A DNA stretch of 64,000 nt from Candidatus Woesearchaeota archaeon (lineage in GTDB: Archaea; Nanobdellota; Nanobdellia; Woesearchaeales; UBA11576), in NCBI GenBank assembly GCA_043819495.1, contig JBDRET010000030.1, positions 5,463 through 69,462 of the forward strand. Reading direction: 5' to 3'. The stretch's first letter is position 1; each line of letters opens with the position of its first letter. A program made the position numbers and the translations under genes. Positions 38,001 through 58,737 of this stretch are shown piece after piece. Below the pieces are notes generated by a model. It searched no databases. It saw only the letters and a list, made by a program, of their open reading frames with translations, and had not been told where the DNA came from.

Positions 38001-38498
38001 AGGCAGTATGGATCAGACATACTCACGCGATCATCAAGCGTCTTTGTCAGGAGAGGGACAGAGATGCCCGTAGGTAATGGCACATTGAGGATAAGATATG
38101 CAGGACTGGACTGTTCACAATATGCCCATATGTGTACTCTTGGTGAAGCAGGGCATATCATAGGCATAGCGTCAGAGAATGATACTCTTTTGATGGGAAG
38201 TGATGAGATGACTACAAGCACAGGGCATTACGCCCTCAAGATATTTGCTGCAGACCCTAGGATGGATTTTGGATCGATCGAGGATGATCTTGCTGATGAT
38301 GACTTCCTTGACAGGGAGAATCCTCTGTTCAGTTATAAGCAGGGCATACCATATTACATAGTGCGGACTGAGATGCGTCCTCCTTATGTCTATCTTAGCG
38401 GCGACCGTAAGGTCGGGGAGGGATATTACATTCTTGTATTCAGGAATGTAGGTTATACTGCTGATGGCAGGGCTAACATAAGCGTGAGTATAAGTTAA
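23037..38498 (+). CDS. giant (5153 aa) secreted/membrane-tethered protein: 7 NosD-type right-handed beta-helix modules, beta-propeller-like insert, internal TM hairpin, Cys/Asp-rich repeats, conserved ~730-aa C-terminal module
   Basis: Single uninterrupted ORF with the signal peptide IVLFCLAMLLFSSSVHAAG. PbH1-type repeats (N.I..N.....GI.L). Seven GN[YF]W.D..D.N.DG.GD.G..YPY caps. See the findings for sub-features. Confidence 0.9.
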   Translation: MVKLEKRLNIVLFCLAMLLFSSSVHAAGLIFGGATIPLIDGGYTIPEKAVPGETLQLFMHIADPGGVDSVVANFTHEKGGDIVALELYNGTSDDGYWKAEWVVHDTLVKDYSVEVIADNGVFQSFETVWWSDPIYPFRARYPSGYTCSSGTWRLGIKFSVTEAVQVESLCGYWSSGAHTVFLQQEGSYGSNLRSASVTSSGSWSCTAITPITLNPGINYFVAQNAAGGSYCYTNHPAGSKYGVNFAQGGVYQSGAGTYFTSAPTPDSAMAYGMVDIGLTCTTPSAGMTISAAGITRLCGGNYNLNDATGVIRIGNNNVNIMCGETILTGSGIVSGRAFYNPGYDGVTIEGCTTYEYLTAFYMGPTVTDAVFRDNTIYRPSNGFYSTNDNHARITIENNEIYTANYGFRVYVGGGDLVIQDNRFSATECNYIYYGDNHRVLNNNFTDLNGSCGVLYMIGYSGTNYNTGSVIENNRFSGAPGNVLFYLYYYLEDLVISNNTIDVSTSSTLYMSGNSYAYPNRNILVTYNNFIDAGYRGINFENYVNSSTISYNNISGPLYYDVRIGSTSGGNVIYGNRFLSAGTNLAEASNYNNHFNRTVGGVAQGNYWADVIPSKLNIQDANLDLFGDSGSQYPYRYSKGGDVNSYVIDYGPILVDSDGDGTPDNVDCGPNDPNIRAPRANLTITSNTIFCPGTYSLNDSSGGSGLIRFGASGITLTCNGTVIIGNGSGLGINDYGYDNVIIQGCDVRNYQYDLFFGNVVTGSTVFNNTLRDAVYGIYFGALGTTGNIVRNNTFTGNDYGVYFASGVIGNEVYHNEFLSSNTDHAYAVSSGNAFYEVIGFNQGNYWIDIPLSNLNITDSDSNGWGDGGSAYPYSAAKGGNVGPNVADYGPMMRDYDSDGSPDSVDCVDTDSSILAPADDVVISYDTTLCPGTYYVTDVGADGVLKVVNADVQILCNNTILIGDYSGIGIASSSLSASIVGCDIRNYSKAISQQQAYWNITFDNGISAIDISQEGALLLIDSYYGDDMKLNEFGETIWIHDSYFYTDIAADSAEDVFVLQEGGEGDAELRKLDGSTGDEIWTVGLYSSGTVVAHALDVNSVGDVFVVGMVGWDNWTIFKIDGSTGDEIWQSVTTLSNSELNAVAVTLDDDVFVGGFRVENDCWIAKYDGDTGDELWNTSDIGCGGGYDQVTDVAVDTSNDLIAVIVDYSSYGSYSNWQIWKGDSDGNEQWVDQIPFDNSIGDNYIWAVATDSADNVIVAGDNNGNWTVIKLNPAGTPLWNRTGEGYGSDVAVDADDNIFVVGEDYDYYGFVLGFTPDGDLLGGGSIDITSSSISSDIGMELIGVSSGTIFNMTFNGNSVYGLYFNDTDDFTVMNSTFANYDYGVYLDSASTGNTFYHNNFTNSAIAHAYAEAAGNYFNFTIGGVPVGNFWDDVAPSMLEIYDTNIDGFGDLGPDYPYSAANGGQVSSNVADYGPMLTDSDSDTVPDYLDCAPYDSSIFPPYDGLKLTSPGTYTLCNGTYYLSDAGNDGIIRVVSDAVTIKGNNTFIVGTNSGYAIRSYEKYAGLTIQGCTLSNFSYGIYLYNTSAGAYSVFWDGLTIKDNNISNMTSAGIYVSYGMKDALVYNNIVEETGTFGIRLVNMANYFSDNNNVTDNDVRTGSDSGIYTDWAGVLIKDNDVTGGGYGIQCRHCIRSNISYNRVINSAQKGILMYYGNTSDLDVTQSVISYNNVSHGAHGGIGIRNIRNLTVAYNWILHTDGTGQHDAGIWDYSESTDRNRYITIRNNYIFNCSNHAILHTNFGHGYITVANNTIDGGWSGSAPRTANGIMFQASGLNYSTFEWNNITNMNGVGIYLNYDASGNIFRYNYIYVNRSSATSVYVYSDIDIKNNTFYNNTFKGGSGGVQFGTNSNNNLVYWNNFLNNTWHASSPALTNQFNTTVGGVPQGNFWDDINSSSLKIFDSNLDGFGDSGAEYPYNSTNRGDVQNKVNDWGPIMIDSDVDGDPDWRDCAPFDSSILSPYDDLNITQDTTLCSGTYYVNDTSGDGLIVFANDDLSLTCNGTVMVGYGNTAIKIADHDGITVSDCTMDYYGSSLGKAALYVLNSNDAVIENVSFSHSRGYSMAFNHVSNYDNNISVDGMTVINGTTAALAVFEVSNSSFKNMYLNVDRGSGSDAIYDDVTYNVSFENITIDGNIATGLFIFSESNLSTYDDIDVDMSQASPSNAGTYIEGKNTTIRNSVFRNTAGGWGIYFSGGGSYGLIENVNLLNNEWGMQIDSGDYHTIRNSTFFNNTQGVLIDSGEIGNIFYYNNFSNSTTYHARADGSGNHFNTTNGSACGNECARGNYWDDILSLDIIDFNRDGYGEAGAHYPYNSTNGGKVTGSVNDFGPLTTKTCYDTDGDGAYNSSSAAGCPGYRDCDDTDEYLVPPYDGLNFTSSGSYTLCSGTYYLNDTGNDGLMKIDSDDVEITCNGTVIRNDIGATEIGTAFNNAGGDDAIVRGCTVVDYDFGYYAEASSNHSTIFNNSFLSCQNAGVESIYSGNDGWNVSDNRFMSEDESPVNQYGVVVNYGDGWAIQRNVFDNMYNSISFRYGDDVLIENNLLNESRLGAIVITGTTGDFVYGAIIANNTFNKSILSGGTAELYIGSYSEAGLIADNTFYVLGGFSTAVIRLDGTSGGEVTDWVIENNDLLDIRNYGIYLQDYTIGTIVRGNNITGADMYGVYLGATVIDDNLFYNNSFYNSGTDHAYDASGANHFNTTIGGVAVGNFWDDINNNIEIFDNNLDGYGDSGPEYPYNSTNGGNVYKVNDYGPILIDSDIDGDPDWRDCNDADAGVLAPRDGLNITSDKMLCSGTYYINDSGVQGVIIFGSAGRELTCDATVMIGNGSGYAVADSYSTTSVDGCDFRNYGSAVLISGSASGVVIANNTLRDSARGVELSGSPTGNIIQNNTITADSYGVYLGSGVSGNYVYYNTFSSMSLANAYAASSGNHFNTTNGSDCGPQCARGNFWDDVLNLQISDLDEDGYGDAGTEYPYNATNGANVSGFVTDWGPATTKAGGYWDSIIYPEGVFEPYNAGLVSKNHQFTLNFTFVDLSAAAGNTLECAINMMNGSVKTINKITSGGVNFDDSLTYTLTAADANAIQKKTVGANKPIIPWEVINCSLKSSGNVLYWNDSSYGSPLEKKIYVHNNTWTGFVAGGDVSAAYLCWLFSKNIWFNNTKACDFDGDYQYAIYLSTGNAIEGNCHDGINNDNFGPTDCDTGICRGIFYSCGNPSKGKSYDDLHPNIPAVLPYLNPFNPEVPPFMPFIWLAAAIMFALLAVFVSRFAELSDLRYVSTVVPIILFICFIINAVTILTVSVAVSAPSIEAAYNGAPPGSCVGNICSGTVSTIGGNPITYYYTLHNRPGSKFKIRWNDDNVNDPLLRSLIYTAKNLSNTISSNGTYDDSGGRPGISRGSVMPPFFDTPEHPNGLFRNYIVQDSDGHAGVVDGVMWAIFNSSVDTTDSVYFQLAVSHYGAADDINPQTELYFDLSAPTNDDESYVNSTIGLANPCADRVDNDLDFNMDCLDDQCNGEIGNVGLGAICQYSGETVCNDRFDNDFDRDSGVLYDTDVNTGMDCRDSGCDGLQGHPSDGSLVCRYLDEHAGYPYSCRDGFNNDADYGNNSGTASLVNGVAAYDTASYTYFDCYDTQCWGQGGTSTDLINNPCPAFENNDGAWCLDGLDNDLDDGNNTRDLSNSTGVDCRDYDCGFMPYAGGPYQNDTMNFTCAINEYSGTEEGTASYDPNASLCFDNLDNDLDNPDGFYNNPGELIDCGDPDCTGITDPDDASRTCYVQEFNITLGIQACNDAFDNDGDDWMGWPGGTDCRDSNCHQQFGNCGPCASVENITYDSCADGMDNDIDTPTGADVADCKDYSDCVGEIGNLTGGQVCSAASGETGALCGDGFDNDADNLVDCKDTNCYGSIGPDGQVCAASEAGRCNDNLDNDADGQIDCFDTDCYGDSACALSIIKAPVYNQVPDYDSLPPAGSSIGATSTIKGFHLEHFYIGNNHTMSFIGTDSYQTVSIFIGSDTDYYAYDFDQCTIIGPNTTTFGNLSSGDYGVIAKNTTYDIGRFNVTMTCNPGAIPLAADTFNVLVSARKSSGAEDKGNEDWTTQLHENTEPDVSYIAIEPLNATGYVNVERGRPIGFVANASDPGAGVYTSGIYRCMFNIGGAGYISDDWDNNYRCRYSYSTTSDTTSSITVSAYAIDGSDNDDSSSPYTSPSFNINVQPILDREMVINKTKPFFNSGEQVRMNVSFVTADNGNFPAATCSVTVLNSAGGVAAASTIAATKPTSNTVECDGAITVPTGDDMYRVYVTVTDEDGDSVSSNQKVLYVCDSLSSSGSGWTCAKADFDQDGATEGIFSDLYVIPVACDNCLNLYNPEQVDRDGDGWGDICEQSPEGSMIIYGPNGTTFTGTRNVFINLTFRDTLYLDNCRYANDDPANLNDSMWENCTMVHAWILSEGEGNKTVYAEIRNLFGGTIVVNDSIVYRFIQDYVPPSAPVVYDGDTGYDIDWWNDNTTLSAYWWNATSAISALYYKYRIFEDGLCYLGDCDWTYVDRDVSVTVEGLSLSEGANYSFEVMSYTSSGFNASTTSNGTIIDVTDPSEVIINSTTHPNQNFTYGNDTVFFNFTATDPMSNGVASGIAGYSFLLDRYPGTAPDDVIEPRPWVNLKAAVNDGTAQLLRADNETSSPNTYAVFSQIKENFTENESLLVKVALAEIGSDYDDLMGIKVYLVKTGNGAAISTFDSEIGAISNIINVSRDVTYSDFMRSAVRYEFELTVNETVSDSSSDVYIVVAGVASDDDNRNNLSIAASVSQIDDSTRNFICVSGGSCSENTTGIDYAIEVSRQDAVDIWEMRYFNIGEGTFYFHAKAKDVAGNWGDPAHYKIIIDTEGVYVSIVSPFTGQIFTVDEIEVKVEVSDQAYVNVTAIYPDGSNDTVATVLVNDTNTFNVTLEPGMNEIYATARQYGSDILTRSSSVFVRRGTEMPVGNGTLRIRYAGLDCSQYAHMCTLGEAGHIIGIASENDTLLMGSDEMTTSTGHYALKIFAADPRMDFGSIEDDLADDDFLDRENPLFSYKQGIPYYIVRTEMRPPYVYLSGDRKVGEGYYILVFRNVGYTADGRANISVSIS
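32910..33080 (+). other. two predicted TM helices in the middle of the 5153-aa ORF
   Basis: FIWLAAAIMFALLAVFVSRF (nt 32910-32969) and YVSTVVPIILFICFIINAVTILTVSVAVSA (nt 32991-33080), separated by a 7-aa charged loop. Confidence 0.6.
33642..34994 (+). repeat. nine Cys/Asp-rich repeats C-x-D-x-[FL]-D-N-D-x-D...D-C-x-D-x-x-C (protein-level)
   Basis: Examples are CNDNLDNDADGQIDCFDTDCYG, CGDGFDNDADNLVDCKDTNCYG and CADRVDNDLDFNMDCLDDQCNG. They resemble MopE-type putative metal/Ca-binding motifs. Confidence 0.7.
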
Positions 38499-38534
38499 AG
38501 AAGGTGTTATGAAGTGGAAAAAGAAACGAGCGGC

Positions 38535-40826
38535 ATGATTTTGATGAAGGTGAGCGAAGTATTCGTGCTCTTATCTGTGATTATCCTGCTTGCAGGAGCA
38601 GTATCTGCAGATATCCCTTCAGGGTCTATTGAGATAAGAGGTCTCAATGGCACTGTGCTTACAGGGTCGCGTAATGTGTTCCTTAACATATCATATAGCT
38701 CATCTGATGGTATTGATATATGTCGCTTCGCAAATGATGACTATTTAGATCTTGCATCTATGTCATGGGAGGAATGTACTACTGTAAAGGCTTGGCTATT
38801 GAGTGGAGATGAAGGCAACAAGACGGTCTACTTCGAGGTACGCGACATCAATGGGCACGCAGCGATATTCAATGATTCCATAATGTTCAGGTTCATCCAG
38901 GATTTCACACCTCCTACTGCTCCGATAGTCTATGATGGAAGTTCAGGGGAAGATATCGATTGGTGGAACAGCAATACTTCGCTCGGAGCGTTCTGGTTTG
39001 GATCGACAGAAGACATATCGACGATATTCTATAGGTACAGGATACTTGAAGGCGCAGCTTGTTATGCTGGGGACTGTAATTTTACGAGCACAGGGACAAG
39101 CACATCAGTGGATGTTGATTTGCTCTCGCTGATAGAAGGAGGAAATTATTCTTTTGAGGTCATCGCGTATAATCATGATGGGCTGAATTCATCGTCAGGT
39201 CTTTCTGATGATGTTACGATTGATATGACGAGGCCAGGCCTGCCAGAGGTGGATAGTTCTACACATCCTGATCAGATCACTCCTTACGATAGTGCGATAG
39301 CTATATTCAATTGGACTTCATCGGATCCATTGGGCAATGGTGTTGCATCCGGAGTGTATTCATATTCGTACCTTCTTGACAAGCACCTTGGTACTGCTCC
39401 TGATAATGTCGCAGAAGGGAGATATTGGGATACTCTTGCATACATGCGTCGTGGCAGCTATAACCAGACTCTCAAGGTGAATGGTACCGGGATGGCGTAT
39501 GCAGTATTCAGCCAGGTCAATTCTAATTTCAGCGTGAATGATTCTTTACATGTGAGTGTAGCATTGGCAGAGCAGATATCTGACTATTCGGATCTCATGG
39601 GCGTCAAGGTCTATCTGACCAAGGTCGCTCAGGATTTGGATATAGGTTCATTTGATATGGAATCAGGAGCAGTTACAGAGGTATATAATGAGAGCTGGGA
39701 TGTCAGATACGCAGACTCTTTGACATCTGCAAAAGCGTATCAGTTCAGTCTCACATTGAATGATACTGTCGATGATAATACTGAAGATGTCTATGTGGTC
39801 GTATCAGGCATACTATCTGATGATGATAATCGTAATCCATTGGCGATAGCAGGGACGGCTACAGGAGAGCTTATCGACAATTCGACAAAGAACTTCATCT
39901 GTCCTGAGACTGGTATCTGCATACAGAACACCAGCACTCTTGATTATGCTATTGAGGTCAAGCGCCAGGATTCTGGTTCCGATTGGTCTGTCAGGTATGA
40001 TTATCTTGGCGATGACACTTATTATTTCCATGTCAAGGCACAGGATCTTGCAGGGAATTGGGGCGACACAGCGCATTATAGGATACTTGTTGCTGCAGGA
40101 GGCGTAGGGTCTCTTATCTATTCTCCTGTGAATGGAGAGGTCATAACTGGTGAAGGTCCTGACGTGAACACTACGGTGAGAGTGGTGGTGAGCGGCAACA
40201 CGACTGCTTATGTTGTGGTCATACACCCGCTGGGTGATAATTACACATCTCCTTCACATGTCATGAACCTGAGCCATGATTTTGAGGATGTCCAGCTTAA
40301 GCTAGGTCTCAATGAGATATATGCCGTGACGAACACCACATCAGGTGCTGTCGCACATTCGTCCAGCGTATTTGTGATAGCATCTTCTGAGCCTGAGGCG
40401 GCCACGAACAAGACTCTCCGGGTACGCTACAACGGATGTGCTGCGACCCCTCTGCCTTATGTCTGCTACCTGACTGAAGGGGATGCATATGTTGGTATCG
40501 CGACAGAGACAGAAGGTGCGCTCAGCGGGTCGGATGTCCAGCAGGACACATCTGTCCGGACGATCAAGATATTCATGTCACGGCAGTTTGACCTTGCGGA
40601 TGTATCTGCACGGCTTGCTACAGATGATTTCCTTGACAGGGTGAACCCTGCTTTCGGTTACAAATATGGTGCAGATGTCTACAGCATAAGCAATGAGCTG
40701 AGGTACAAAGATATTTTCCTTGGAGGAAATTTTATTGTCTCGCCAGGGACTTACCAGCTATACATCATGAAGAGCGGGACCACAAGTTCAGGCATGTCTA
40801 ACATAACGATTGCGATATCGGATTGA
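38535..40826 (+). CDS. secreted paralogue of the giant protein's C-terminal module (copy 2)
   Basis: Signal peptide MKVSEVFVLLSVIILLAGAVSA. It is colinear with nt 36297-38495 (RNVF[IL]N, C[RK][FY]ANDD, GEGNKTVY, FIQD[FY].PP.AP[IV]VYDG, YYFHVKA.D.AGNWGD.AHY). The track starts at the GTG at 38514; the ATG at 38535 or 38544 is more plausible. Confidence 0.85.
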   Translation: MILMKVSEVFVLLSVIILLAGAVSADIPSGSIEIRGLNGTVLTGSRNVFLNISYSSSDGIDICRFANDDYLDLASMSWEECTTVKAWLLSGDEGNKTVYFEVRDINGHAAIFNDSIMFRFIQDFTPPTAPIVYDGSSGEDIDWWNSNTSLGAFWFGSTEDISTIFYRYRILEGAACYAGDCNFTSTGTSTSVDVDLLSLIEGGNYSFEVIAYNHDGLNSSSGLSDDVTIDMTRPGLPEVDSSTHPDQITPYDSAIAIFNWTSSDPLGNGVASGVYSYSYLLDKHLGTAPDNVAEGRYWDTLAYMRRGSYNQTLKVNGTGMAYAVFSQVNSNFSVNDSLHVSVALAEQISDYSDLMGVKVYLTKVAQDLDIGSFDMESGAVTEVYNESWDVRYADSLTSAKAYQFSLTLNDTVDDNTEDVYVVVSGILSDDDNRNPLAIAGTATGELIDNSTKNFICPETGICIQNTSTLDYAIEVKRQDSGSDWSVRYDYLGDDTYYFHVKAQDLAGNWGDTAHYRILVAAGGVGSLIYSPVNGEVITGEGPDVNTTVRVVVSGNTTAYVVVIHPLGDNYTSPSHVMNLSHDFEDVQLKLGLNEIYAVTNTTSGAVAHSSSVFVIASSEPEAATNKTLRVRYNGCAATPLPYVCYLTEGDAYVGIATETEGALSGSDVQQDTSVRTIKIFMSRQFDLADVSARLATDDFLDRVNPAFGYKYGADVYSISNELRYKDIFLGGNFIVSPGTYQLYIMKSGTTSSGMSNITIAISD

Positions 40827-40868: not shown

Positions 40869-41561
40869 GTGAATATGATGGAAACAAAAAATATGGAACG
40901 AAAAGAGGAGAGCCAGAGTATGCCTGGCCTGCGAAAGTTCATTTCGCCCAAAGCGGCGCACAGATTCGCTAATCTGACGTCATTCCTGGCACGTTTCATC
41001 ATAATATTCATGTTCCTCATAGCGACAGCTCTCGCCCAGGTGCAGTCCCACAGGTTGTCAGAGATAAGGATAATAGATCAGGATCTTAATCTGAATGTCT
41101 ATAGCCTGAACGCAACAATGATCAACGCAACTGATGATATATGCATCACTGGAGGTGTCTGTCTGAGCAATGCATTTGGGACGTTCTATGATAAGACTAC
41201 CTCGCCAATAACTGCAAATTTCGGACTTTACGCTCCAAGTGGAGAGACTGGTTACGATGCAGGGACTGCGATATGTAATAGTAATTTTACTGGGACCCAT
41301 ATGTGTAGCTTCACTGAGATCGTTTATACCATATCTACAAGAAATTTTGCAGCGATATCTGGCTGGAATGGAGAGGCATGGATAGCCTCAGGTCCTGCGA
41401 AGTATTCGCCCGCAGCATTACCTGTGGCGGACTGTAATGGATTCACTCATGGTACTGCAGGAAGTCACCTGGGTAACTGGTGGACATTCAGCACAACGAC
41501 AGGAGGAGTAGGCAGGACAGGCCACTGTGGGAATACGTTTCCCATAGCCTGCTGTAAGTGA
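40869..41561 (+). CDS. membrane-anchored protein carrying the Cys-rich C-terminal domain of the 653-aa fibre-like protein
   Basis: 230 aa with the TM FLARFIIIFMFLIATALA. Its last ~150 aa align with the end of the 41571..43532 product (DDICITGGVCL/NDICIDGGNCL; C.[AS].FTG.H.C...EIVYTI; GNWW.F..TTGGVG.TG.C......IACC). Confidence 0.8.
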   Translation: MNMMETKNMERKEESQSMPGLRKFISPKAAHRFANLTSFLARFIIIFMFLIATALAQVQSHRLSEIRIIDQDLNLNVYSLNATMINATDDICITGGVCLSNAFGTFYDKTTSPITANFGLYAPSGETGYDAGTAICNSNFTGTHMCSFTEIVYTISTRNFAAISGWNGEAWIASGPAKYSPAALPVADCNGFTHGTAGSHLGNWWTFSTTTGGVGRTGHCGNTFPIACCK

Positions 41562-41570
41562 GGTGCGAAA

Positions 41571-43532
41571 ATGAAGATGAATAAAACAATAACAATCCTG
41601 GCATTCATGCTTGTACTTTTAAGCACCTTGGCGATGGCAGAGTGGGTCAAGGACCATAACAGCTGCACTGACAATTATCAGTCACAGAACTGTGCTGCAA
41701 GTCAGAAAGCTTGCGCGTGGGTCTCAAGCACATTGTACTGTGCCTTACCTGCAACAGTCAATGCGGCAATACCGGGAAGCCCGAGTACAATAAACTATAA
41801 TGCGCCCTCACAAGCTCTTGGTGGTGGTTATGTGTTTAATTGTCTTAGGACAAACACTGTGGCGTGTAATGTTTGGGAATGTCAGAGTGATCTTTCATGT
41901 TCTAATGTGGGTCGAAAGACTACCTGTGCTGGTGGTGCTACGACCTTCTCTTGTGATGTGTGTCGTGATGGTTATCATTATTGTGATGGTAGTTATGTTG
42001 ATGGTAATGGTTGTGAGATAGTGGAAGGGTCTACACCATTCCCTTCAGAGCCTAATTCCCATTATGGTGTGGATGACTGCGTCAATCCTATATGCAATAC
42101 CAACTATCTTGATTGTGATGGTGATCTGGGAACTACAGGCACTGGTTGCGAAGTCCTTGATGGCTCTGTATGTTATGTTGGGCCAGTACCTGGGACTGTG
42201 ACTGGTTGCAGCGGAGGGGCTGCTAATTGTGTCGTGGATCCTGTGCATCATATGACTGGTACAGAAGCGGCATATAGCAGCGGAAATGCAAACTTGTGGT
42301 CCACACAATATGGCAGCGGATGGCTTGCTAATTTCACTAGAGCGTATGCAGCACCTACGAGCAACTCTAATATAACATTCGGCATCAACAACAATGGCTG
42401 TATAGTATTCAATGATTCATCTTCACAATGCACTGCAGGTGTTGCTGCAGGTACTGCTGGCTGGGTAGATGATGGTTCTGTCGTCAGGTTGGATAATTCA
42501 GCTGATAAGGTGGGGATTGGCACATCTAATCCTGTAGCGGCGCTTCACGTCAATATTACTGCAGGTGGTGCTGCAGCATTCGGTGGAGGGTCTACAACAG
42601 CATCAGAGAATTATGCGTTTGCCTCAGGATATAACAGTAGGGCAACCGCTGAAGGATCAGTTGCTATGGGCATGTTCCCTTATGCGAATGGATATGGTTC
42701 TGTAGCTATAAGCAGGGCAACATCTGGTGGGGCTTACTCTGTTGCGATCGGTGAATATGCTGTCGCTAGTAACAATAGGGCGTACTCTTTTGGTATAGGG
42801 ACGACTGCGAGCGGGGTTTATTCTTTTGCCATTGGTAACTCGACTACAGCAAGTGCAACAAGTTCAATGGCGATCGGTAATGGTGTCACTGCAAGTGGAA
42901 TTAAATCAATAGCATTCGGTCACGGGATAGAAGTCAGCGGCTCCGAATCTATAGGTGTAGGGTTGGATTCTATACACAGGACAGTCTCTAGGAATAATGT
43001 CATGTCCATAATGGGTGGCAATGTAGGCATCGGTACGACTTCTCCAAACGCAACACTCCACGTCGCAGGAGACATAAACGTCACTGCAGGCAATGATATA
43101 TGTATTGATGGAGGAAATTGTCTTGGAACACTCAGTGCAGGAGCAACATTTGTGGGTAAAACTTCAGGGTATTACGATGCAGATTTTACATCCGCAACGC
43201 CTGCAGGTTTTGAAGGTTACAAGGCTGCGAATTATCTGTGCAATGCTAGCTTTACAGGGGCTCACATCTGCACGACGCATGAGATAGTGTATACGATAGC
43301 TAACAGAGATCTGACTGTCATATCGGATTGGAGCATGAAAGCATGGATTGCAGTAGGTCCTTCAAAATATTCAGGTATCGGTGTGAAGTTCGTGAATGAC
43401 TGCCATGGTTTCACTGATGATGGTTCTGCAGGAAACGCATTCGGCAACTGGTGGTATTTCAACCAGACGACCGGAGGGGTCGGTGAGACAGGTACTTGTG
43501 ACAGCGCGCTGCAGATAGCGTGTTGCATGTGA
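41571..43532 (+). CDS. secreted fibre-like protein with Cys-rich N-domain, VGIGT..P...LHV motifs, YadA-head-like repeats and Cys-rich C-terminal domain
   Basis: 653 aa with the signal peptide MKMNKTITILAFMLVLLSTLAMA. Repeats of the form S.A.G..[ST].A (SVAMG, SVAIS, SVAIGEYAVAS, SFGIGTTASG, SFAIGNSTTAS, SMAIGNGVTAS, SIAFG) span nt ~42603-42965. Confidence 0.8.
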   Translation: MKMNKTITILAFMLVLLSTLAMAEWVKDHNSCTDNYQSQNCAASQKACAWVSSTLYCALPATVNAAIPGSPSTINYNAPSQALGGGYVFNCLRTNTVACNVWECQSDLSCSNVGRKTTCAGGATTFSCDVCRDGYHYCDGSYVDGNGCEIVEGSTPFPSEPNSHYGVDDCVNPICNTNYLDCDGDLGTTGTGCEVLDGSVCYVGPVPGTVTGCSGGAANCVVDPVHHMTGTEAAYSSGNANLWSTQYGSGWLANFTRAYAAPTSNSNITFGINNNGCIVFNDSSSQCTAGVAAGTAGWVDDGSVVRLDNSADKVGIGTSNPVAALHVNITAGGAAAFGGGSTTASENYAFASGYNSRATAEGSVAMGMFPYANGYGSVAISRATSGGAYSVAIGEYAVASNNRAYSFGIGTTASGVYSFAIGNSTTASATSSMAIGNGVTASGIKSIAFGHGIEVSGSESIGVGLDSIHRTVSRNNVMSIMGGNVGIGTTSPNATLHVAGDINVTAGNDICIDGGNCLGTLSAGATFVGKTSGYYDADFTSATPAGFEGYKAANYLCNASFTGAHICTTHEIVYTIANRDLTVISDWSMKAWIAVGPSKYSGIGVKFVNDCHGFTDDGSAGNAFGNWWYFNQTTGGVGETGTCDSALQIACCM

Positions 43533-43542
43533 GGTGGCGAAG

Positions 43543-46500
43543 ATGAAGATGAATAAGACAATAATAATTATGACTTTTATTGCAGTACTGCTCAGTGTTT
43601 TCGTCGCTGCTGATGTAAGCTGGACAAATCATCCGTCCAATTGTGAGGCCAGTTATGCTGCATTATCCTGTGCAGTCATAGGTGAAGAGGTCTGTGGTTA
43701 TAATAGTGGAACTGGCGCTATCCTCTGTAATGATACTGATGTGATGCCGAATCCTCCAGGCAATGTCTACAATTCGATAGCTGATAATTATGGTACTACA
43801 GGAGGATTTGTAATCAACTGTGCTGCATCTCCTGATGGTGGTACGTATAATTGTGATAATGGTGGCGCTTACTGGTGCGAGAAGGATGATACCTGTTGGA
43901 ACTCAAATAACCGTAAGACTAATTGTTTTGCAGGGAAGTGGCAAGATGATGCCGGTGCGTACGCCTGTGGTGTATGCAGAGATAATTATTACAACTGTAC
44001 GGGCGGTGCTTCTTGTACTAACTATACTGGTCAGAGTTGTACTGCACCAGGTGGTCTTCCGGGAACTTTAAGCTGTTCTGCTGGTGGCGGAAGCCCTAAT
44101 TGTAATAATGGTGGCGGTAGTCCGTATACTTGTACTTGTATAGGTTCCCCTTCGCACCATATCACAGGAACAGAATCATTATTCAGTACTGTTAATGCTA
44201 ACCTATGGTCTACTCAGGTAGGTACTGGCTGGATAGCCAATTTCACGAGCACAAACTCTGACAACACATTAGGTATAGACAATGATGCCTGTGTCAGGTT
44301 CGATGATGGTACGACCCAGTGCACTGCAGCATCAGGTGGCGGCTGGAACACAAGTGATGGTAAGGTATATCTGAGCAACACAAGCGCTAAGGTAGGGATA
44401 GGCACGACGAGTCCTGGTGCTGATCTGGATGTTACAGGGACTGTGTCATCTATTTTGGTGAACTCGACTGGTTCGGGTGCTTCAGATTTTGGTACGATAA
44501 GTTTCAGCCATAATGGTGGAAACTTGTGGAGTGTTGGCACGGGAGGTACGGGTACTTCTGCTAATGGTCATTTATTTTTCTATAATAGCCAAGGAGGTGG
44601 AAGCATACCTATGGTTATTAAGAATGGTACAGGCAACATCGGCATCGGTACGTCAAGTCCAAACACGAAGCTCTATGTGTATGATGACATTGACAGTAAT
44701 CTCATACTGACTATAGATAATCCAAATTCTGGAAGTAGTGCCGTATCGACCTTAGCTTTGGTCCAGAATGGTGCAAACGCTCGCATATGGAATATAAATG
44801 GAGGGATTGGTTTTTCAGCAGATGCAGATGACACTGGCAGTTTCATGTTCGAGACCCAGACAGGGAGCAGTTATCATAATCGACTGACCATTGAAAATGG
44901 CGGCAATGTCGGCATCGGTTCTTCAAATCCTGGTTCCATATTGGATGTTGAAGATTATGATGCTGGTTATGGTAATAACATCACACAGTTGACTGTAGGT
45001 GTGCCTGATGGTGTCGGAAGTAATTGGACTTCTCAGATCATGATGGAAGCGACATTCGAGAACTTCACAGTAGATACTGGCAGCAGGAATACTGGATTGA
45101 TCCAGGCAGGGTATGATGGTGGTCCATGGGATACTGCATATCTTAGCCTTGGTGTATCTGGAAATGATTGTCTTACTGATGGAGGTACTACACCTTGCGA
45201 ACGGATGCGCATAGTATCAGGTGGCAACATTGGCATCGGCACGTCAATTCCCGACCAGGACCTTACGATAGAGGATCCGGGTGATGATGTTGCAATTCAT
45301 TTGAAGAAGGTTATACAGATATCGAGTGTGAATTATGGAATTACTGGAGCTAATGATGCTTCAGTAGGTACGCGCAGTTGGGATGGTGTTTCAGGGTCAG
45401 GTGCAGGCTCTATATTTTTTGCAGAACCGGTCCAGACGACTTATTACTTCAAGTCAACTAACTATGGGTTCTCTATACCTTCTGATGCAGTCATAGATGG
45501 CATAGAATTCAGATTATCGAGATTAGGACAGCCTTATTGGGCAGGTGATAGTTATTGTTATGGTGCAGATAATAGTATTAAGATAGTCAAGGGAGGGATA
45601 ATAGGATCTACAGAGAAGAGTACGGGAACTGTATGGAGTTCTCTTGGTGGGGGTAGTGCGACAACCACATATGGTGGCCCTTCTGATCTTCTGGGTGAGA
45701 CCTGGACTCCAGCAGACATAAATTCTGCTAACTTCGGTTTAGTTTACTCAGCGAACATGGGTGGTTCGAATGAAGTATGTGAGTTTTCAGTGACTGTTGA
45801 TTCGATGACAGTCTATTACACAGGTACTGGATGGACTGCAGGTATGGATCATAGTGACTCTAATTCCTTCAAGATATCTTTGTCTGGAGATGTAAGCGAA
45901 AATCCTGCTTTGGTGATAGACACGTCCAAAGATGTGTTCCTGAATCATGATCTTGATGTTGGTAACAATCTTGATGTGGAAAATAATGTGCATATATCTG
46001 GTGACTTGGATGTTGCAGGAGGAGATATAACTACAGCAATACTGCGTTTTGGTACTGGAACCAGTAGTGGCCAGTATGAGTTTGAGGATGGTGGGGTGTG
46101 TGTTGGTAGTGGCGGTTGTACTGCTCCGACTACTGATGGTGATCTTCTTGTAGAAGGAGATGTGACTATAAGTGGTGGTGACTTGTTTGCAACCAGTTTA
46201 AGGTTCGGCAGTGCATCTAGCAGCGGCCTGTATGAGTTTGAGGATGGTGGTGTGTGCATAGGTGATGGAGGATGTACTGCTCCGACCACTGATGGTAACC
46301 TTCTTGTTGCAGGAGATGTGCTGACAACTGATATACTTAAGACAGGAGGTACTAATTTTTTCACAGGAGGGTGCACTGATAAGCAGTATATCACAGGAAT
46401 AAGTTCTGCAGGAGCCATAAGCTGTTCAGATGACAGTGCATCGTCTTCAGTCAATTGCGGAACCACTAATGCAGTAATAAAGCGGACAGGCACTGATACG

Positions 46501-47595
46501 TATGGTTGTTCAGGAGTGATTGACGCATCGGATGCAACAGCAATCACTATAAGTTCTGCTGAATATGTTGGGATAGGTACTACAACACCTGGCGAACCCC
46601 TTGATATAGAATACACTTGCTCAAGCTGTAATGTTGGTGTGGCATCATTAGGTAACTCTGGGACATATGCTGATGGGGATTATTCTCTGGCGGTAGGCTA
46701 TGATTCATATACGTCTATAGCAGGAGATTATGGATTCGCATTAGGATATGGTTCACGTTCTACTTATTGGGGTGCAATAGCGATGGGTGAATACGCAATC
46801 TCGCAAGGCTCTGTTTCCGTAGCCATAGGTGAAAGAGTATTTGCAGGAGGGATGCAGGCAGTTGCAATAGGTAATTATGCTAAAGCATCAGGTCGTGCTT
46901 CGACAGCATTAGGCAACCACGCTAAAGCTGACGTTGATTACAGCGGTGCATGGGGAGGGGACGCATGCGACGCTACTGCAACAAACTGTGACGTTGATTA
47001 CTCGGGTGTCTTCGGAATTTTCGGTGCTCTGTGCGTCTCTACTGCGGCAGGGATTTGCCCTGATGTACCAGATGGAAATATCCGGTATGATACAGGCATA
47101 GCAGCATTCGATCTTGCAGAAGGTTTCCCGACTGATAAGCAGTTGGATAAGGGAGATGTTGTTGTCATTGTAGATAATGTGACTATAGGTCATACAAATA
47201 TTCCTTATGACACAAGAGCTGCAGGAGTGATAAGCACATCACCCAATATAGCATTCAATTTCGACGAAGCAGATGGTGACTTCAGTTCCTTGGGCGGCAT
47301 TGAGAATTACACGATGCCACTAGACCGAGCACCTCTATCCCTTGCAGGCAGAGTCCCTGTCAAAGTTACTGACGAGAACGGTCCGATAATGTTAGGTGAC
47401 TCTTTGACGACATCATCAAAGCCAGGATATGCTATGAAGTGGTCACTTGTTGATCTTGACGCTGCATCAGACATAAATGAACTTAAGCAGATGATGAAGG
47501 AGAATGACCGCAGGAGGAATGCAATCATCGGCAAGGCTCTTGAAGAGCACAGTTCAGGAGATGGGCTGATAATGATGCTTACAGCATCACGTTAA
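43543..47595 (+). CDS. large secreted fibre-like protein (about 1350 aa), paralogous N-domain, multiple VGIGT..P motifs, YadA-head-like repeats, distinct C-terminal domain
   Basis: Same MKMNKT start and the same upstream TGAGGTG SD as the previous gene, so the ATG at 43543 is preferred over the track's GTG at 43534. N[IV]GIG[TS]S.P...L.V occurs five times. Repeats LAVGYDSYTS, FALGYGSRST, AIAMGEYAISQGSVSVAIGERVFA, AVAIGNYAKASG and STALGNHAKA span nt ~46678-46932. Confidence 0.85.
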   Translation: MKMNKTIIIMTFIAVLLSVFVAADVSWTNHPSNCEASYAALSCAVIGEEVCGYNSGTGAILCNDTDVMPNPPGNVYNSIADNYGTTGGFVINCAASPDGGTYNCDNGGAYWCEKDDTCWNSNNRKTNCFAGKWQDDAGAYACGVCRDNYYNCTGGASCTNYTGQSCTAPGGLPGTLSCSAGGGSPNCNNGGGSPYTCTCIGSPSHHITGTESLFSTVNANLWSTQVGTGWIANFTSTNSDNTLGIDNDACVRFDDGTTQCTAASGGGWNTSDGKVYLSNTSAKVGIGTTSPGADLDVTGTVSSILVNSTGSGASDFGTISFSHNGGNLWSVGTGGTGTSANGHLFFYNSQGGGSIPMVIKNGTGNIGIGTSSPNTKLYVYDDIDSNLILTIDNPNSGSSAVSTLALVQNGANARIWNINGGIGFSADADDTGSFMFETQTGSSYHNRLTIENGGNVGIGSSNPGSILDVEDYDAGYGNNITQLTVGVPDGVGSNWTSQIMMEATFENFTVDTGSRNTGLIQAGYDGGPWDTAYLSLGVSGNDCLTDGGTTPCERMRIVSGGNIGIGTSIPDQDLTIEDPGDDVAIHLKKVIQISSVNYGITGANDASVGTRSWDGVSGSGAGSIFFAEPVQTTYYFKSTNYGFSIPSDAVIDGIEFRLSRLGQPYWAGDSYCYGADNSIKIVKGGIIGSTEKSTGTVWSSLGGGSATTTYGGPSDLLGETWTPADINSANFGLVYSANMGGSNEVCEFSVTVDSMTVYYTGTGWTAGMDHSDSNSFKISLSGDVSENPALVIDTSKDVFLNHDLDVGNNLDVENNVHISGDLDVAGGDITTAILRFGTGTSSGQYEFEDGGVCVGSGGCTAPTTDGDLLVEGDVTISGGDLFATSLRFGSASSSGLYEFEDGGVCIGDGGCTAPTTDGNLLVAGDVLTTDILKTGGTNFFTGGCTDKQYITGISSAGAISCSDDSASSSVNCGTTNAVIKRTGTDTYGCSGVIDASDATAITISSAEYVGIGTTTPGEPLDIEYTCSSCNVGVASLGNSGTYADGDYSLAVGYDSYTSIAGDYGFALGYGSRSTYWGAIAMGEYAISQGSVSVAIGERVFAGGMQAVAIGNYAKASGRASTALGNHAKADVDYSGAWGGDACDATATNCDVDYSGVFGIFGALCVSTAAGICPDVPDGNIRYDTGIAAFDLAEGFPTDKQLDKGDVVVIVDNVTIGHTNIPYDTRAAGVISTSPNIAFNFDEADGDFSSLGGIENYTMPLDRAPLSLAGRVPVKVTDENGPIMLGDSLTTSSKPGYAMKWSLVDLDAASDINELKQMMKENDRRRNAIIGKALEEHSSGDGLIMMLTASR

Positions 47596-47656: not shown

Positions 47657-50350
47657 TTGATATCTGTACTTGTGTTCATCCTAGCGTCAGCAGCTCTCGC
47701 AAGCCCGCAGACAACAAGCAACTTCAACTGCTCTATCTATGAGCGCATAGGAATACCTGCAGATTTCACCCCTCTTGTCAACTTCTTTTATGGGAATGAT
47801 TCCCACGCAGAATATGGAAATGAATCTAATTATGATTGGACTGTTGCATGCAAGTCTAACATCACAGAGATAGGTTACGGTTGTACTGAAACAGCAGTGA
47901 GTGTCCTCCAACTCTACAACTACACTGATGCGCACGTATCTGTGGATGATTACTATAACAGGAATGTCTGTTTCAATATGACTAACGACTCGGTCGTCTG
48001 GCATTATAATATCTCAGATACAGGCATGACTCCCGCTGGTTACGAATGCGCATTCTCAATATTCCAGATGGAAGATGCCCACGTGTATGATTGTGATAAC
48101 ATAAACTCAAGCTATAATGTCAACCTGCGTATAACTGAAAAGCCGCTGGGTACCATGACTATTGTCGGGCCTAACGGTACGATACTCACAGCTACGCAGA
48201 ATGTATTCCTGAATCTGACTCAGGATGCGAAATATGGCCTGGACAAGTGCCGTTGGGCGAATGATGACGCGGCGGACCTGGTTCTGGCGCCATGGGAGAA
48301 CTGCACAAATTACAAGCCATGGATACTCAGTGATGGAGAAGGTAACAAGACAGTGTATTATCAGATCATCGACGTGCTCGGAGTTCTATCAAATCCTATA
48401 AACGCATCGATAGACTTCTCTTATACCCAGGACTACACCGCTCCGACATCACCGATAGTATATGATGGTCTTGAAGGTGATGACATCGACTGGTGGAACA
48501 GTAACACCACCCTGCACGCACATTGGTTCAATGCGACAGATGATATCTCTGTGATATACTACAGATACCGCGTGCTTGAGAACGGTTCGTGCTACGGCGA
48601 TTGCAATTGGACAGAAGCAGGACTCAACACTTCAGTGACAGTCACAGGACTTTCTCTTAACGAGAGCTGGTGGTACTCTTTTGAGGTCCAGCCATCCAAT
48701 GCTTTCGGTATAGATGGAGCCCCTTCACAATCTAATGGGACTATGATAGATATTACAGCACCAGCAATACCTTCAGTAAACAGCACAAGCCATCCTCAAG
48801 AGAATCTATCTTACCCTGTACGGGATGCAGAGCTCAACTGGACAGCAGAAGACATCATGATGAATGGCAACATGAGCGGTATTGCAGGATACTCGTTCAT
48901 GCTTGACACAAGTCCAGGTACTGCACCAGATGATATATTGGATGAGAGGTATCTTGAAACCATACTATCAGGAAGTCAAGGCACATCCAGCCAATTGTTG
49001 CGGGCAGACAATGAGACCTCATCACCTCATACTTATGCAGTTTTCAAACAGATACATACCAACCTTACAGAGAATGATTCTCTGACGATCACAGCATATC
49101 TTGCTGAACTCACATCAGATTATGATGATCCTATGGGTGTCAAGGTATATCTGATAAAGACCGCTCCAGGAGCAGGTATCTTGACATTCTCACAGGAAGA
49201 TAAAGCGATATCTGACATATCAAACACAAGCCAGGATATCATATACGCAGATACTATGGATCTTGCAAGAGCATACACTTTCAGTGTGACAGTCAATGAG
49301 ACTGTCGATATCAATTCCAATGATATATATGTCGTCGTGAGCGGTGACACCTCTGATGATGATAACAGGAACAACCTCTCGATTGCAGGTACTGCTGCTT
49401 CTGCAGGTGCTACTTCAGTATACTTGTGTGATGACACCAACTCATGTTCTAATGTCACAAGCACTGCAGATTATACAATTAAAGTAGAGCGCTCAGATGC
49501 AGGTGACGGATGGTCTACCATGTACAAAGGCCTCTCTGATGGTGTGTACTATTTCCATGTCAAGGCAAAGGACATCGCAGGCAACTGGGGAGAGCCGACG
49601 CATTACAGGATTGCTGTCGCTGCAGGTGGTGTTAGCGTATCGATAGTGCATCCTGAGAATGGAGAACATCTCAAGATGGGACAAGGATCGTTGAACACGA
49701 GTGTGGAAGTCGTGGTCTCAGGGAATGCTACAGTCCGTGTGACTGTCATCCATCCGGATAATAGTGTCTACACGACTGACGATCAGGTCTTCAGCACAAG
49801 ATATGAATTCAGTGATGTTCTCCTAGAGCTGGGCAGGAATGAGATCTACGCTACAGCGAACACATCGTCAGGTGTAGTGACTGTCTCTTCAAGCGTCTAC
49901 GTCACGGTATCGCGCGGAATCATACCTGAGAAGAACGCGACATTGATGATCGCTTATGGTGCATGTGCCCCTTCATCCAACCCATACCTGTGCACTGCAG
50001 CAGAAGGTGATTCATTGGTCGGCTTTGCAGCAGAATACCCTGATGATGTAGGTACAGGATACCTTTCAGCAAACACCTCAGGAAGGACAATCAAGATATT
50101 CATGTCCAAGGTGTTCAATGTTGATGCTGTTGCTGATAAGTTTGATGATGATGAGTTCCTTGATGAGGAGAACCCCTCTTTCGGTTATCCTGAGGAATCA
50201 ACAAGGTTTGTCATGCAGAACCAGTTGAGGTATGATGACATATTCATATCTGGTGATAAGATATTTGCTCCAGGCAAGTATGAGCTTTACATAATACATA
50301 ATGGTGTGACTCCTGATGGGAGGGTTAACCTTTCAATAGAGATACGATGA
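47657..50350 (+). CDS. secreted paralogue of the giant protein's C-terminal module (copy 3) with extra ~160-aa N-domain
   Basis: Colinear with copies 1 and 2 from nt ~48150. The start codon is uncertain: the track uses the TTG at 47657, but the reading frame is open from 47630 and a GAGGTG SD sits at 47623-47628. Confidence 0.8.
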   Translation: MISVLVFILASAALASPQTTSNFNCSIYERIGIPADFTPLVNFFYGNDSHAEYGNESNYDWTVACKSNITEIGYGCTETAVSVLQLYNYTDAHVSVDDYYNRNVCFNMTNDSVVWHYNISDTGMTPAGYECAFSIFQMEDAHVYDCDNINSSYNVNLRITEKPLGTMTIVGPNGTILTATQNVFLNLTQDAKYGLDKCRWANDDAADLVLAPWENCTNYKPWILSDGEGNKTVYYQIIDVLGVLSNPINASIDFSYTQDYTAPTSPIVYDGLEGDDIDWWNSNTTLHAHWFNATDDISVIYYRYRVLENGSCYGDCNWTEAGLNTSVTVTGLSLNESWWYSFEVQPSNAFGIDGAPSQSNGTMIDITAPAIPSVNSTSHPQENLSYPVRDAELNWTAEDIMMNGNMSGIAGYSFMLDTSPGTAPDDILDERYLETILSGSQGTSSQLLRADNETSSPHTYAVFKQIHTNLTENDSLTITAYLAELTSDYDDPMGVKVYLIKTAPGAGILTFSQEDKAISDISNTSQDIIYADTMDLARAYTFSVTVNETVDINSNDIYVVVSGDTSDDDNRNNLSIAGTAASAGATSVYLCDDTNSCSNVTSTADYTIKVERSDAGDGWSTMYKGLSDGVYYFHVKAKDIAGNWGEPTHYRIAVAAGGVSVSIVHPENGEHLKMGQGSLNTSVEVVVSGNATVRVTVIHPDNSVYTTDDQVFSTRYEFSDVLLELGRNEIYATANTSSGVVTVSSSVYVTVSRGIIPEKNATLMIAYGACAPSSNPYLCTAAEGDSLVGFAAEYPDDVGTGYLSANTSGRTIKIFMSKVFNVDAVADKFDDDEFLDEENPSFGYPEESTRFVMQNQLRYDDIFISGDKIFAPGKYELYIIHNGVTPDGRVNLSIEIR

Positions 50351-51888: not shown

Positions 51889-51895
51889 GGTGGCA

Positions 51896-52471
51896 ATGAT
51901 GATCACAAAAAACAAACAAGGGAACAGAATGAGACTTTTCAACTCAAGGAAAGCAGTATCTCCTCTCATCGCTACAGTCCTTCTCATAGCTTTTGCGGTC
52001 GCTTTGGGTGCTGTTGTGATGAATTGGGGCAGGGGATATGTTGAAGACACGGCAAATATCGCCCGTGAGCGTTCAGACACTGAAGTGAGATGCGCATCAG
52101 AAGTTGATGTCAATATAGTTGAGATCGACAGTGTACCTCAGATATGCTATAATTCGACAGGTGGTCCTGGCAGTAATTACACCATAGAGTTCATTGTAGA
52201 GAATAAGAAGTCAAGGACTGTCGAGAAACTTCAGGCAAGGCTTATAGGTGATAAGACTCGAGTCCCTTTGACTATCGATATGGGAGACAACTCTAACATG
52301 TCTACAAACGAGGCCAGATTCCTGAACTTCAGTTATCTTGAGTCAGTATATGGCAATCCACAGCAGGTTCAGCTCACGCCGTACATAAAAGTGGGTGCTG
52401 TTGAGGTCGGCTGTCCTTCAAGTTCAGAGATAGTGACCACGGTAAAGCCTTGCTCAGAAGTGTGGGTATAA
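51896..52471 (+). CDS. archaeal type IV pilin, paralogue 5 (same 4-Cys family as 5222-7760)
   Basis: ...RLFNSRKA|VSPLIATVLLIAFAVALGAVV, with the Cys pattern VRC...QIC...GC...PC. SD GAGGTG precedes the ATG at 51896 or 51899. Confidence 0.8.
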   Translation: MMITKNKQGNRMRLFNSRKAVSPLIATVLLIAFAVALGAVVMNWGRGYVEDTANIARERSDTEVRCASEVDVNIVEIDSVPQICYNSTGGPGSNYTIEFIVENKKSRTVEKLQARLIGDKTRVPLTIDMGDNSNMSTNEARFLNFSYLESVYGNPQQVQLTPYIKVGAVEVGCPSSSEIVTTVKPCSEVWV

Positions 52472-52522
52472 ACTAATCTTTTTGTTTCAATATTTTTATT
52501 TTTCATATTTTGGTAGGTCAAT

Positions 52523-52942
52523 ATGGTGGATAGGAGATCAAAAAAGATAAGTGTACTTATTTTCATGTTCGCGATATTCATACTTCTAGTCGTAGTGACT
52601 GCTTCCTGGCTGTATCGCATATATACAGAACAGACAGCGTTCTCTGAGAAGAAGACGATGGCGACAGTGACCTGCAGCCAGTATTATTTTTATATAAATA
52701 ATGAAAGTGTCCTTTATGAGGATGGGAAGATATATTTCGAGATAGAGAACATCATGGGGAAAGATATAGATAAGATTGTGGTACGTACCTCGACAGAAGA
52801 AGCTGTCGTTGATATGGACGGGCTTGGTCAGGGGATAATCCAGCCGGTTACGTTACCTATTGAGGTGATAGAATGGGCCCTGGTCTACCCTGAAGGGTGT
52901 GATGGTGCGAACTTCAAGAACCTTAGCTTTGAGACAGGCTGA
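52523..52942 (+). CDS. small N-terminally anchored protein (possible minor pilin)
   Basis: 139 aa. MVDRRSKKISVLIFMFAIFILLVVV has a basic leader and a hydrophobic helix but no G/A at position -1. Confidence 0.5.
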   Translation: MVDRRSKKISVLIFMFAIFILLVVVTASWLYRIYTEQTAFSEKKTMATVTCSQYYFYINNESVLYEDGKIYFEIENIMGKDIDKIVVRTSTEEAVVDMDGLGQGIIQPVTLPIEVIEWALVYPEGCDGANFKNLSFETG

Positions 52943-52996
52943 TTTGATACTGTCTGACTTTGTGACGGGCTGATTGACTGATGATGGATATTTGCT
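52938..52996. repeat. stop-rich TGATTGA-type spacer repeat (locus 1 of 3)
   Basis: GCTGATTTGATAC...GCTGATTGACTGATGATGGATATTT directly after the stop codon. Confidence 0.5.
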
Positions 52997-53042
52997 GTTG
53001 CCGCATAGTTTGGCGGGACAGAATCAAAAAAGAGGAGATTGA

Positions 53043-53750: not shown

Positions 53751-53830
53751 TAGAGAGAATATTCATATATGATAAATTTATGATCACGTAAAATAAAGAT
53801 TTTAAAATAAATGTATAAAAGAGGGATATT

Positions 53831-55972: not shown

Positions 55973-56037
55973 AAGTAGTTTGGTATGTTTGATATGAAAT
56001 GAATTTTGATACACAATATCCTGTTTAGGTGTGGTTT

Positions 56038-56326: not shown

Positions 56327-56367
56327 GTTCGTGTCAGGGTGTCAGGTTTTTGATTTCAGTTTGATTC

Positions 56368-58725: not shown

Positions 58726-58737
58726 GGTTATGATACT

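Follow-up and report, generated by a model that had tools for sequence, protein, structure and literature searches.

Three adjacent genes for predicted surface proteins

The 64,000-nucleotide stretch of Candidatus Woesearchaeota archaeon DNA analyzed here (contig JBDRET010000030.1; the window) contains three tightly packed open reading frames (ORFs A, B, and C) on the + strand at positions 40869-47595. A preliminary description of this interval, made from the sequence alone, had reported two fibre-like proteins of 653 and approximately 1350 amino acids with signal peptides. These are ORFs B and C, and the signal peptides of both can be read from the sequence as Sec-type (MKMNKTITILAFMLVLLSTLAMA|EW for B; that of C is similar). 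The Cys motif, HH block, GIG motifs, YadA-like repeats, and DLAEGFP domain listed in that description are all present at the positions it gave. ORF A lies inside the same interval and was absent from it. The features of the three genes are as follows, with amino acid (aa) positions counted in each protein.

40869-41561, + strand: ORF A, 230 aa (227 aa from the probable start ATG 40878)
41184-41558, + strand: predicted C-type-lectin-like tip of A, aa ~106-230
41571-43532, + strand: ORF B, a 653-aa fibre
41640-42338, + strand: N-terminal domain (N-domain) of B, aa 24-225, about 20 Cys, and the HHMTGTE...NANLWSTQYGSGWLANFT block, aa 226-256
42588-42980, + strand: YadA-head-type left-handed beta-roll of B, aa 340-470, about 9 units of 14 residues
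43017-43124, + strand: second GNVGIGTTSPNATLHV shaft motif of B and the 'NDICIDGGNCL' neck before the tip
43149-43529, + strand: predicted C-type-lectin-like tip of B, aa 527-653, in which 6 Cys are conserved and the last residues are ACC[KM]
43534-47595, + strand: ORF C, 1353 aa from GTG, or ~1350 aa from the probable start ATG 43543
43612-44247, + strand: N-domain of C, aa 27-207, and the HHITGTE...NANLWSTQVGTGWIANFT block, aa 208-238
44386-45333, + strand: shaft of C, in units bounded by 'GN[VI]GIGT..P...L.V' with motifs at aa 285, 367, 457, and 564
45334-45933, + strand: middle domain of C, aa ~601-800
46048-46320, + strand: tandem duplication in C, 2 units 156 nt (52 aa) apart, aa ~839-929
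46642-46938, + strand: YadA-head-type beta-roll of C, aa 1037-1135, about 7 units of 14 residues
47107-47112, + strand: predicted autocleavage site F1192|D1193 of C, where the conserved D-x-A-E motif begins
47110-47592, + strand: candidate Peptidase_G2-like intramolecular chaperone domain of C, aa 1193-1353

B is composed of the signal peptide, the N-domain, a shaft unit, a YadA-head roll, a second shaft unit, a neck, and the lectin-like tip. In C, the signal peptide and N-domain are followed by four shaft units, the middle domain, and the tandem Cys-loop repeat, and then by another shaft unit, a YadA-head roll, a Cys-rich cap, and the G2-like domain. In the much shorter A, a signal or transmembrane segment (aa 39-56) and a short neck ('DDICITGGVCLS') precede the tip.

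The genes are related to one another at both ends. The 5' ends of B (41565-41617) and C (43537-43589) are 77% identical and represent a diverged duplicate; because of this duplication, the ATG at 43543, which gives C the same MKMNKT beginning as B, is its probable start. The two proteins align over their first ~500 aa (29% identity, E = 3e-41), and the C-terminal ~130 aa of A match the C-terminus of B (45% identity, E = 1e-35).

The N-terminal domain and its relatives

The N-domains of B and C contain the motif CxVCRDxYxxC (CDVCRDGYHYC at B 128-138 and CGVCRDNYYNC at C 145-155) and lead into the common block HH[MI]TGTE...NANLWSTQ.G.GW.ANFT. Homologues of this domain (alignment A2) were found on the contigs L003, L004, L005, L007, and L008 and in the proteins P0100 and P0239. 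The surroundings of P0100 are archaeal (RFC and TYW2 genes). On L003, from a metagenome-assembled genome (MAG) titled Methanosarcinales, a 1547-aa protein adjoining HisG combines the N-domain with a shaft, a long YadA head (E = 6.8e-35), and a distinct coiled-coil end. L004 and L005 (CAZDZO01, a MAG titled Candidatus Peribacteria) encode two giant N-domain fibres of >1553 and >2743 aa. The bacterial labels used here, Peribacteria and candidate phyla radiation (CPR), are record titles only, with binning error possible, and the flanks of L008 and of the "Peribacteria" contigs hold only surface-protein genes.

The same N-domain carries three kinds of C-terminal end. The L003 protein terminates in a coiled coil, a 1019-aa fibre on L007 (GCA_964563755.1, a 150-kb contig) has the N-domain, shaft, neck, long YadA head, and a G2-like end ('GADFAEF...'), and P0239 and the 1775-aa P0261 have the lectin-like tip, in P0261 together with a shaft. 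B and C likewise end differently. P0261 is encoded by one of four tandem fibre genes on a 962-kb contig (L008, ERZ21878363 ctg6932c), and fibre paralogues are also found in tandem on L003, L004, and L005.

On these same four contigs, an ORF with the lectin-like tip is immediately followed by an N-domain fibre gene, much as A is by B, and A/B by C, in the window. The upstream ORFs are at 1580-2050 in L003, 4935-5522 in L004, 5265-5783 in L005, and 3005-3322, 7657-8001, and 12705-13325 in L008. This arrangement of a tip ORF followed by an N-domain gene suggests that the fibre genes form tandem arrays whose order is fixed. The third kind of end, in the C-terminal ~90 aa of the L003 gene at 2038-6681, begins 'HADYVFEDNYSLESIEEHSDYMWNNKHLKAVP...' and continues into the coiled coil. 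We take this end to be the one that also occurs at the ends of many bacterial "tail fiber domain-containing" proteins.

Beta-helical shaft and YadA-head repeats

The [VI]GIG[TS] motif occurs twice in B and five times in C, against expected counts of 0.013 and 0.047, and none of 2000 shuffled sequences reached the observed count. Searching for homologues of C gave 393 proteins, and about 115 of the 120 listed cover only the shaft region (C ~250-600). The listed shaft homologues are 750-2340 aa long, and many end in Peptidase_S74. Those with names come from CPR bacteria (Uhrbacteria, Moraniibacteriota, and Parcubacteria), Margulisiibacteriota, and Elusimicrobia. Against PDB sequences, the shaft profile (alignment A4) matches solved mosaic adhesive trimeric (MAT) fibres of Bdellovibrio bacteriovorus, with the highest significance for Bd2133 (8ond, E = 1.9e-30), followed by 8oml (1.2e-15), 8ojn (2.8e-14), 8on4 (6.5e-8), and 8ol4 (3.3e-7). 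A PHROG tail fiber family (18345) also matches C 211-527 (E = 6.6e-8).

MAT fibres are surface-displayed trimers with an invariant N-domain and swappable tips that serve in prey recognition by Bdellovibrio; the tips include the S74 chaperone, new beta-sandwiches, TNF-like domains, and a C-type lectin variant (PMC10769870). The resemblance of the present proteins to Bd2133, Bd3182, and Bd2740 extends beyond the homologous GNVGIGT-type beta-helical shaft. Both groups are cell-encoded and secreted, are about 650-1350 aa long or more, and occur as several paralogues per genome that have one N-terminal domain in common and exchange their C-terminal ends, among which are an autoproteolytic chaperone and a C-type-lectin variant, both of them predicted in the present proteins. 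They differ in that the host here is an archaeon rather than a Gram-negative predator, the putative chaperone resembles G2 and not S74, the shaft contains inserted YadA-head rolls, and the genes belong to a pilus and giant-adhesin cluster. The N-domain, which is disulfide-rich and carries the HHxTGTE/NANLWSTQ block, also appears to be a different module; the solved MAT chains cover only shafts and tips.

Both fibres interrupt this shaft with repeats of a second known kind. The S.A[IM]G repeats, which had been likened to YadA heads, match Pfam YadA_head above its cutoff of 25 bits in B (E = 1.2e-10, 41.9 bits) and in C (E = 2.9e-7, 31.1 bits), at positions that agree with the ranges proposed earlier. 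Both rolls have a 14-residue period (14/28 in C). Among PDB sequences, the roll of B matches the heads of BpaC (7o23, E = 5.9e-7), Hep_Hag (3s6l), and YadA (1p9h), and the roll of C matches EibD (2xqh, E = 0.011) and Hep_Hag (3s6l).

The 'NDICIDGGNCL' neck of B recurs in A and in proteins of L003 and L007. The middle domain of C has no match in Pfam (E <= 0.1), NCBIfam (E <= 1), or PDB sequences (E <= 10) and hardly any homologues among the fibre relatives of C; it may be an inserted side domain. The two units of the tandem duplication (repeat family D1) are 81% identical over 117 nt and follow the pattern '...RFG.(G/A)(T/S)SSG.YEFEDGGVC.G.GGCTAPTTDG.LLV.GDV', with a Cys pair in each; neither a homologue nor a fold emerged for this repeat.

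The C-terminal domain of ORF C

The domain that ends C had been tentatively attributed to the ends of bacterial and viral fibre proteins, and it does occur there. At least 167 stretches in viral contigs encode it, and it also terminates fibres in MAGs named as CPR bacteria. In 22 of 22 viral ORFs inspected, it forms the extreme C-terminus of proteins of 313-2134 aa and begins 'YADLAE'. A dedicated search with the end of C recovered 105 homologues, and in all but a few of them the domain lies at the C-terminus or within ~30 residues of it. Positions D16, A18, and E19 of the D-x-A-E motif are invariant or nearly so in an alignment of 47 sequences (A1), of which 17 match Pfam Peptidase_G2 (PF11962, the intramolecular chaperone autoproteolytic cleavage domain; best E = 2.6e-6) and 11 match a phage minor-capsid family.

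The profile of this alignment gives a marginal match (E = 0.0035) to the pre-neck appendage protein gp12 of phage phi29 (6qz9) among PDB sequences. In the alignment, the conserved D falls on residue 1 of the crystallized C-terminal gp12 fragment 3gqh ('DFAEYF'). Mature gp12* comprises residues 1-691 (PMC6542822), so the natural cut of gp12 lies immediately before this D. An AlphaFold2 model of the end of C (176 residues, pLDDT 89.4) has 3gqh (E = 1.4e-3) and 3suc (E = 1.5e-3) among its Foldseek matches, and it matches phage cement and head-fibre base proteins equally well. Together, the sequences and the model suggest that the domain is remotely related to the Peptidase_G2 intramolecular chaperone of gp12. 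The predicted cleavage of C at F1192|D1193 follows from the domain starting at the conserved DxAE that aligns with the beginning of the gp12 fragment; by this analogy, the cut would be made after trimer assembly.

In C, as in phi29 gp12 (3gqh/3suc/6qz9) and the uncultured viral fibres ending 'YADLAE...', the domain lies at the C-terminus after a beta-structure, which in C is predicted to be trimeric, and the D-x-A-E position is alike; the folds may be related. Unlike the phage fibres, C has no virion attachment domain and no virion genes beside it. A helical segment inserted in its domain (aa ~1313-1328; model residues 137-151) is also missing in some relatives.

One homologue of C with a G2-like end, P0016 (2035 aa), also contains Hint and intein-splicing Pfam domains. 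This protein would join two different self-processing modules.

The predicted lectin-like tip of ORFs A and B

An exhaustive HMMER search with the tip found 677 representative proteins at E <= 1e-3, including 28 at E <= 1e-30, while a word-indexed homologue search with the B tip found no match. In the listed HMMER hits, the tip is C-terminal in proteins with a median length of 323 aa, and GIGT motifs are present in 24 of 150. An AlphaFold2 model of the tip (pLDDT 88.6) retrieves only C-type-lectin-like folds among its 50 listed Foldseek PDB matches, which include snake-venom lectins, mannose-receptor CRD4, and BDCA2, and its neighbours in BFVD are viral C-type lectins and phage DUF1566 proteins. 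With moderate confidence, based on the model, we assign the tips of A and B a C-type-lectin-like fold. The sole PDB match of the tip profile, the IgA1 protease 3h09, was judged spurious (E = 0.006, within a low-complexity stretch).

In being a small, disulfide-stabilized C-terminal domain that ends a fibre, the tip is like those of Bordetella phage BPP-1 Mtd, Bd2740, and the DPANN and CPR surface proteins diversified by diversity-generating retroelements (DGRs). Its predicted fold is nearest to snake-venom C-type lectins; for the MAT tip Bd2740, also a C-type lectin variant, the closest structures are a snake-venom lectin and phage Mtd (PMC10769870). The A/B tip differs from this group in having no sequence similarity to solved C-type lectins. 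We also considered the tips as DGR targets. With blastn, both tips match only themselves in the window, so that there is no second DNA copy, and no reverse transcriptase was found among the window ORFs scanned with Pfam. Since there is neither a template repeat nor a reverse-transcriptase match, a DGR was rejected for the window.

ORF A has one further conserved stretch. At aa 39-64 (nt 40983-41060), the sequence 'ALA|QVQSH.LSEIR.ID' follows the signal or transmembrane segment and is kept in the L007 orthologue (10001-10960) and loosely in P0229. The idea that a 'QxQxH' mature N-terminus generally accompanies the tip was dropped, because only 3 of 150 tip-bearing proteins have it.

Genomic context

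The three genes belong to a longer same-strand run. It consists of a regulator, a 5153-aa NosD/beta-helix giant, a 770-aa protein, A, B, C, and an 897-aa protein, followed by small ORFs, a pilin, an ATPase, and membrane proteins. Marks of an archaeal genome in the window are an A24 prepilin peptidase with an archaeal C-domain, type IV pilins, T2SSE, two T2SSF, and NFACT. Proteins encoded on a 7.5-kb twin contig (GCA_043805635.1, Candidatus Woesearchaeota archaeon) are 99-100% identical to those of the window, and C (P0001) is cut there by the contig end. As delimited here, B and C had no exact match among recorded proteins.

A similar order is found in the more diverged L007, with a giant NosD protein, a 765-aa protein, a 319-aa A homologue (63% identity in the tip), the 1019-aa fibre, a 909-aa protein, small ORFs, a pilin, a 235-aa protein, and T2SSE. 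Between L007 and the window, the proteins that flank the fibre genes share 52-80% identity. This conservation argues for a vertically inherited cellular locus and not a mobile virus.

There are two pilus gene sets in the window, at 4270-7760 and 51890-59661. The first has the A24 prepilin peptidase and four paralogous pilins (5222-7760) with near-identical class III signals (KKGLSPLIAAVLLIVVVV). The second, downstream of the fibres, has a pilin (51890-52471), the T2SSE ATPase (53831-55972), and the two T2SSF genes. The last ~750 aa of the 5153-aa giant (23037-38498) recur as the ORFs of 770 aa (38514-40826) and 897 aa (47657-50350) that bracket the fibre genes. This giant-end module, which shows up in DNA repeat families D2, D3, and D7, has no Pfam family, and the three proteins are 43-57% identical to three corresponding copies in L007. 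The module might be a surface scaffold to which the fibres attach.

Interpretation and alternatives

We interpret A, B, and C as cell-encoded, secreted adhesive proteins of a DPANN archaeon, with B and C being mosaic MAT-like fibres that are probably homotrimeric, and give this reading a probability of about 0.7. It agrees with the first suggestion of cellular adhesive fibres that mix YadA-head-like and phage-fibre-like modules, which the Pfam and PDB sequence matches support. The trimeric state of B and C is predicted because every homologous module is obligately trimeric. A role in adhesion or host attachment, and the anchoring of the fibre by its N-domain, are likewise inferred from the architecture, the MAT precedent, and the episymbiotic lifestyle of cultivated DPANN archaea.

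In the mechanism that we propose, the disulfide-rich base domain would hold the fibre on the cell's own envelope, which is a conjecture, and the GNVGIGT shaft and YadA-head-type roll would project a variable distal end. B would bear the predicted ligand-binding tip, and A would present the same tip on a very short stalk. In C, the G2-type chaperone might start trimer folding at the C-terminal end and then release itself by a cut at F1192|D1193, so that the beta-roll and Cys-rich cap would become the exposed tip. The fibres could act with the type IV pilus and giant adhesins encoded beside them in adhering to or recognizing other cells, such as a host.

Several observations weigh against parts of this interpretation. 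The N-domain has no recognized fold or partner. The C-terminal domain of C taken alone has no Pfam match, the similarity of its family to gp12 is marginal, and the Foldseek alignment of its model to 3gqh has TM-scores of only 0.47-0.51. For the tip, which has no Pfam or NCBIfam match, the Foldseek statistics are weak (best E = 6.7e-3, TM-scores 0.26-0.46), and the tip profile finds no C-type lectin among PDB sequences.

A variant of this interpretation has the fibres mounted on the type IV pilus as accessory or tip adhesins instead of on the envelope. The genes share their strand and a run with short gaps with the pilin, ATPase, and T2SSF genes, this neighbourhood is kept in L007, and an interplay between fibres and type IV pili was raised for MAT proteins (PMC10769870). 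However, the signals of A, B, and C are Sec-type and differ from the class III signal of the window pilins (K/R-G/A-x-SPLIA...), and the N-domain fibres of contigs L002 and L003 lie among housekeeping genes with no pilus genes nearby. The preliminary description had called the proteins possibly pilus-associated; the neighbourhood agrees with this and the signals do not, and we regard pilus mounting as unlikely.

We consider it a little less likely still that the proteins are structural components of the envelope, such as S-layer-associated spacers or matrix proteins, without specific ligand binding. Their genes are embedded among those of giant surface proteins (5153, 770, and 897 aa), as such components might be, but the exchange of distal ends on a conserved base and the tandem paralogue arrays are more reminiscent of receptor-binding proteins. 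C-type-lectin folds also typically bind ligands.

A viral reading, in which the genes encode the receptor-binding proteins of an archaeal virus (integrated or degraded) or a tailocin-like particle, would account for the PHROG tail-fibre match in C and for the many viral fibre ORFs that end in its C-terminal domain. The 64-kb window nevertheless contains no capsid, portal, terminase, tail-tube, sheath, baseplate, or integrase gene detectable with Pfam or PHROGs, as the preliminary description had already indicated for capsid, terminase, and integrase genes. On this absence of virion genes, a prophage or tailocin was rejected. The diverged L007 genome keeps the cellular order of surface and pilus genes, and a pattern scan of 2.9 million viral contigs, within its sensitivity, recovered neither the N-domain nor the tip. 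We judge a viral origin improbable.

That B and C are trimeric autotransporter adhesins of the YadA family is the least probable reading by far: only the 14-residue left-handed beta-roll repeats of YadA, BpaC, EibD, and Hep_Hag heads are shared, while a YadA membrane anchor, neck, or stalk domain is not found by Pfam, the NCBIfam models for Ata and YadA score far below their cutoffs (20 bits where 2500 are required, and 9 where 750 are), and the C-termini are instead the predicted lectin-like tip and the G2-like domain. As an archaeon, the organism would also have no outer membrane to hold a beta-barrel anchor.

Implications

The means by which DPANN archaea and CPR bacteria, the two groups of ultrasmall episymbionts, locate and keep hold of their hosts are poorly understood, with pili being the main candidates so far. 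In the literature that we found, only pili are described for CPR episymbionts, and unassigned filaments are present in DPANN tomograms. This locus offers candidates in its predicted autocleavage site, small lectin-like tip, and conserved base domain. It also extends the building plan of MAT and phage fibres from Bdellovibrio and viruses into the Archaea, within a conserved pilus and giant-adhesin cluster. The distribution of the modules suggests that they move between viruses, CPR bacteria, and DPANN archaea.

A broader proposal, which we advance only tentatively, is that DPANN archaea and CPR bacteria share one family of host-recognition fibres with a common N-domain base, a MAT-type shaft, and exchangeable ends (the C-type-lectin-like tip, the G2-type autochaperone that is also found on viral fibres, and the coiled-coil end). 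If this is true, then the fibre genes would be a horizontally shared, cross-domain "grappling" toolkit that sets host range much as phage receptor-binding proteins do. Each module is of a known kind. Their combination, the DPANN host, the distinct N-domain, the conserved linkage to pilus and giant-adhesin genes, and the apparent sharing with CPR bacteria seem to be undescribed; a non-exhaustive literature search found no earlier description of such fibres, and archaea and CPR bacteria are not mentioned in the MAT study (PMC10769870).

Two further surface proteins are encoded on the opposite (-) strand of the window. The gene at 9475-13059 specifies a 1194-aa protein with CBM96 and a disaggregatase-related repeat, and the gene at 15250-21261 specifies a 2003-aa protein with a weak Big_7 match.

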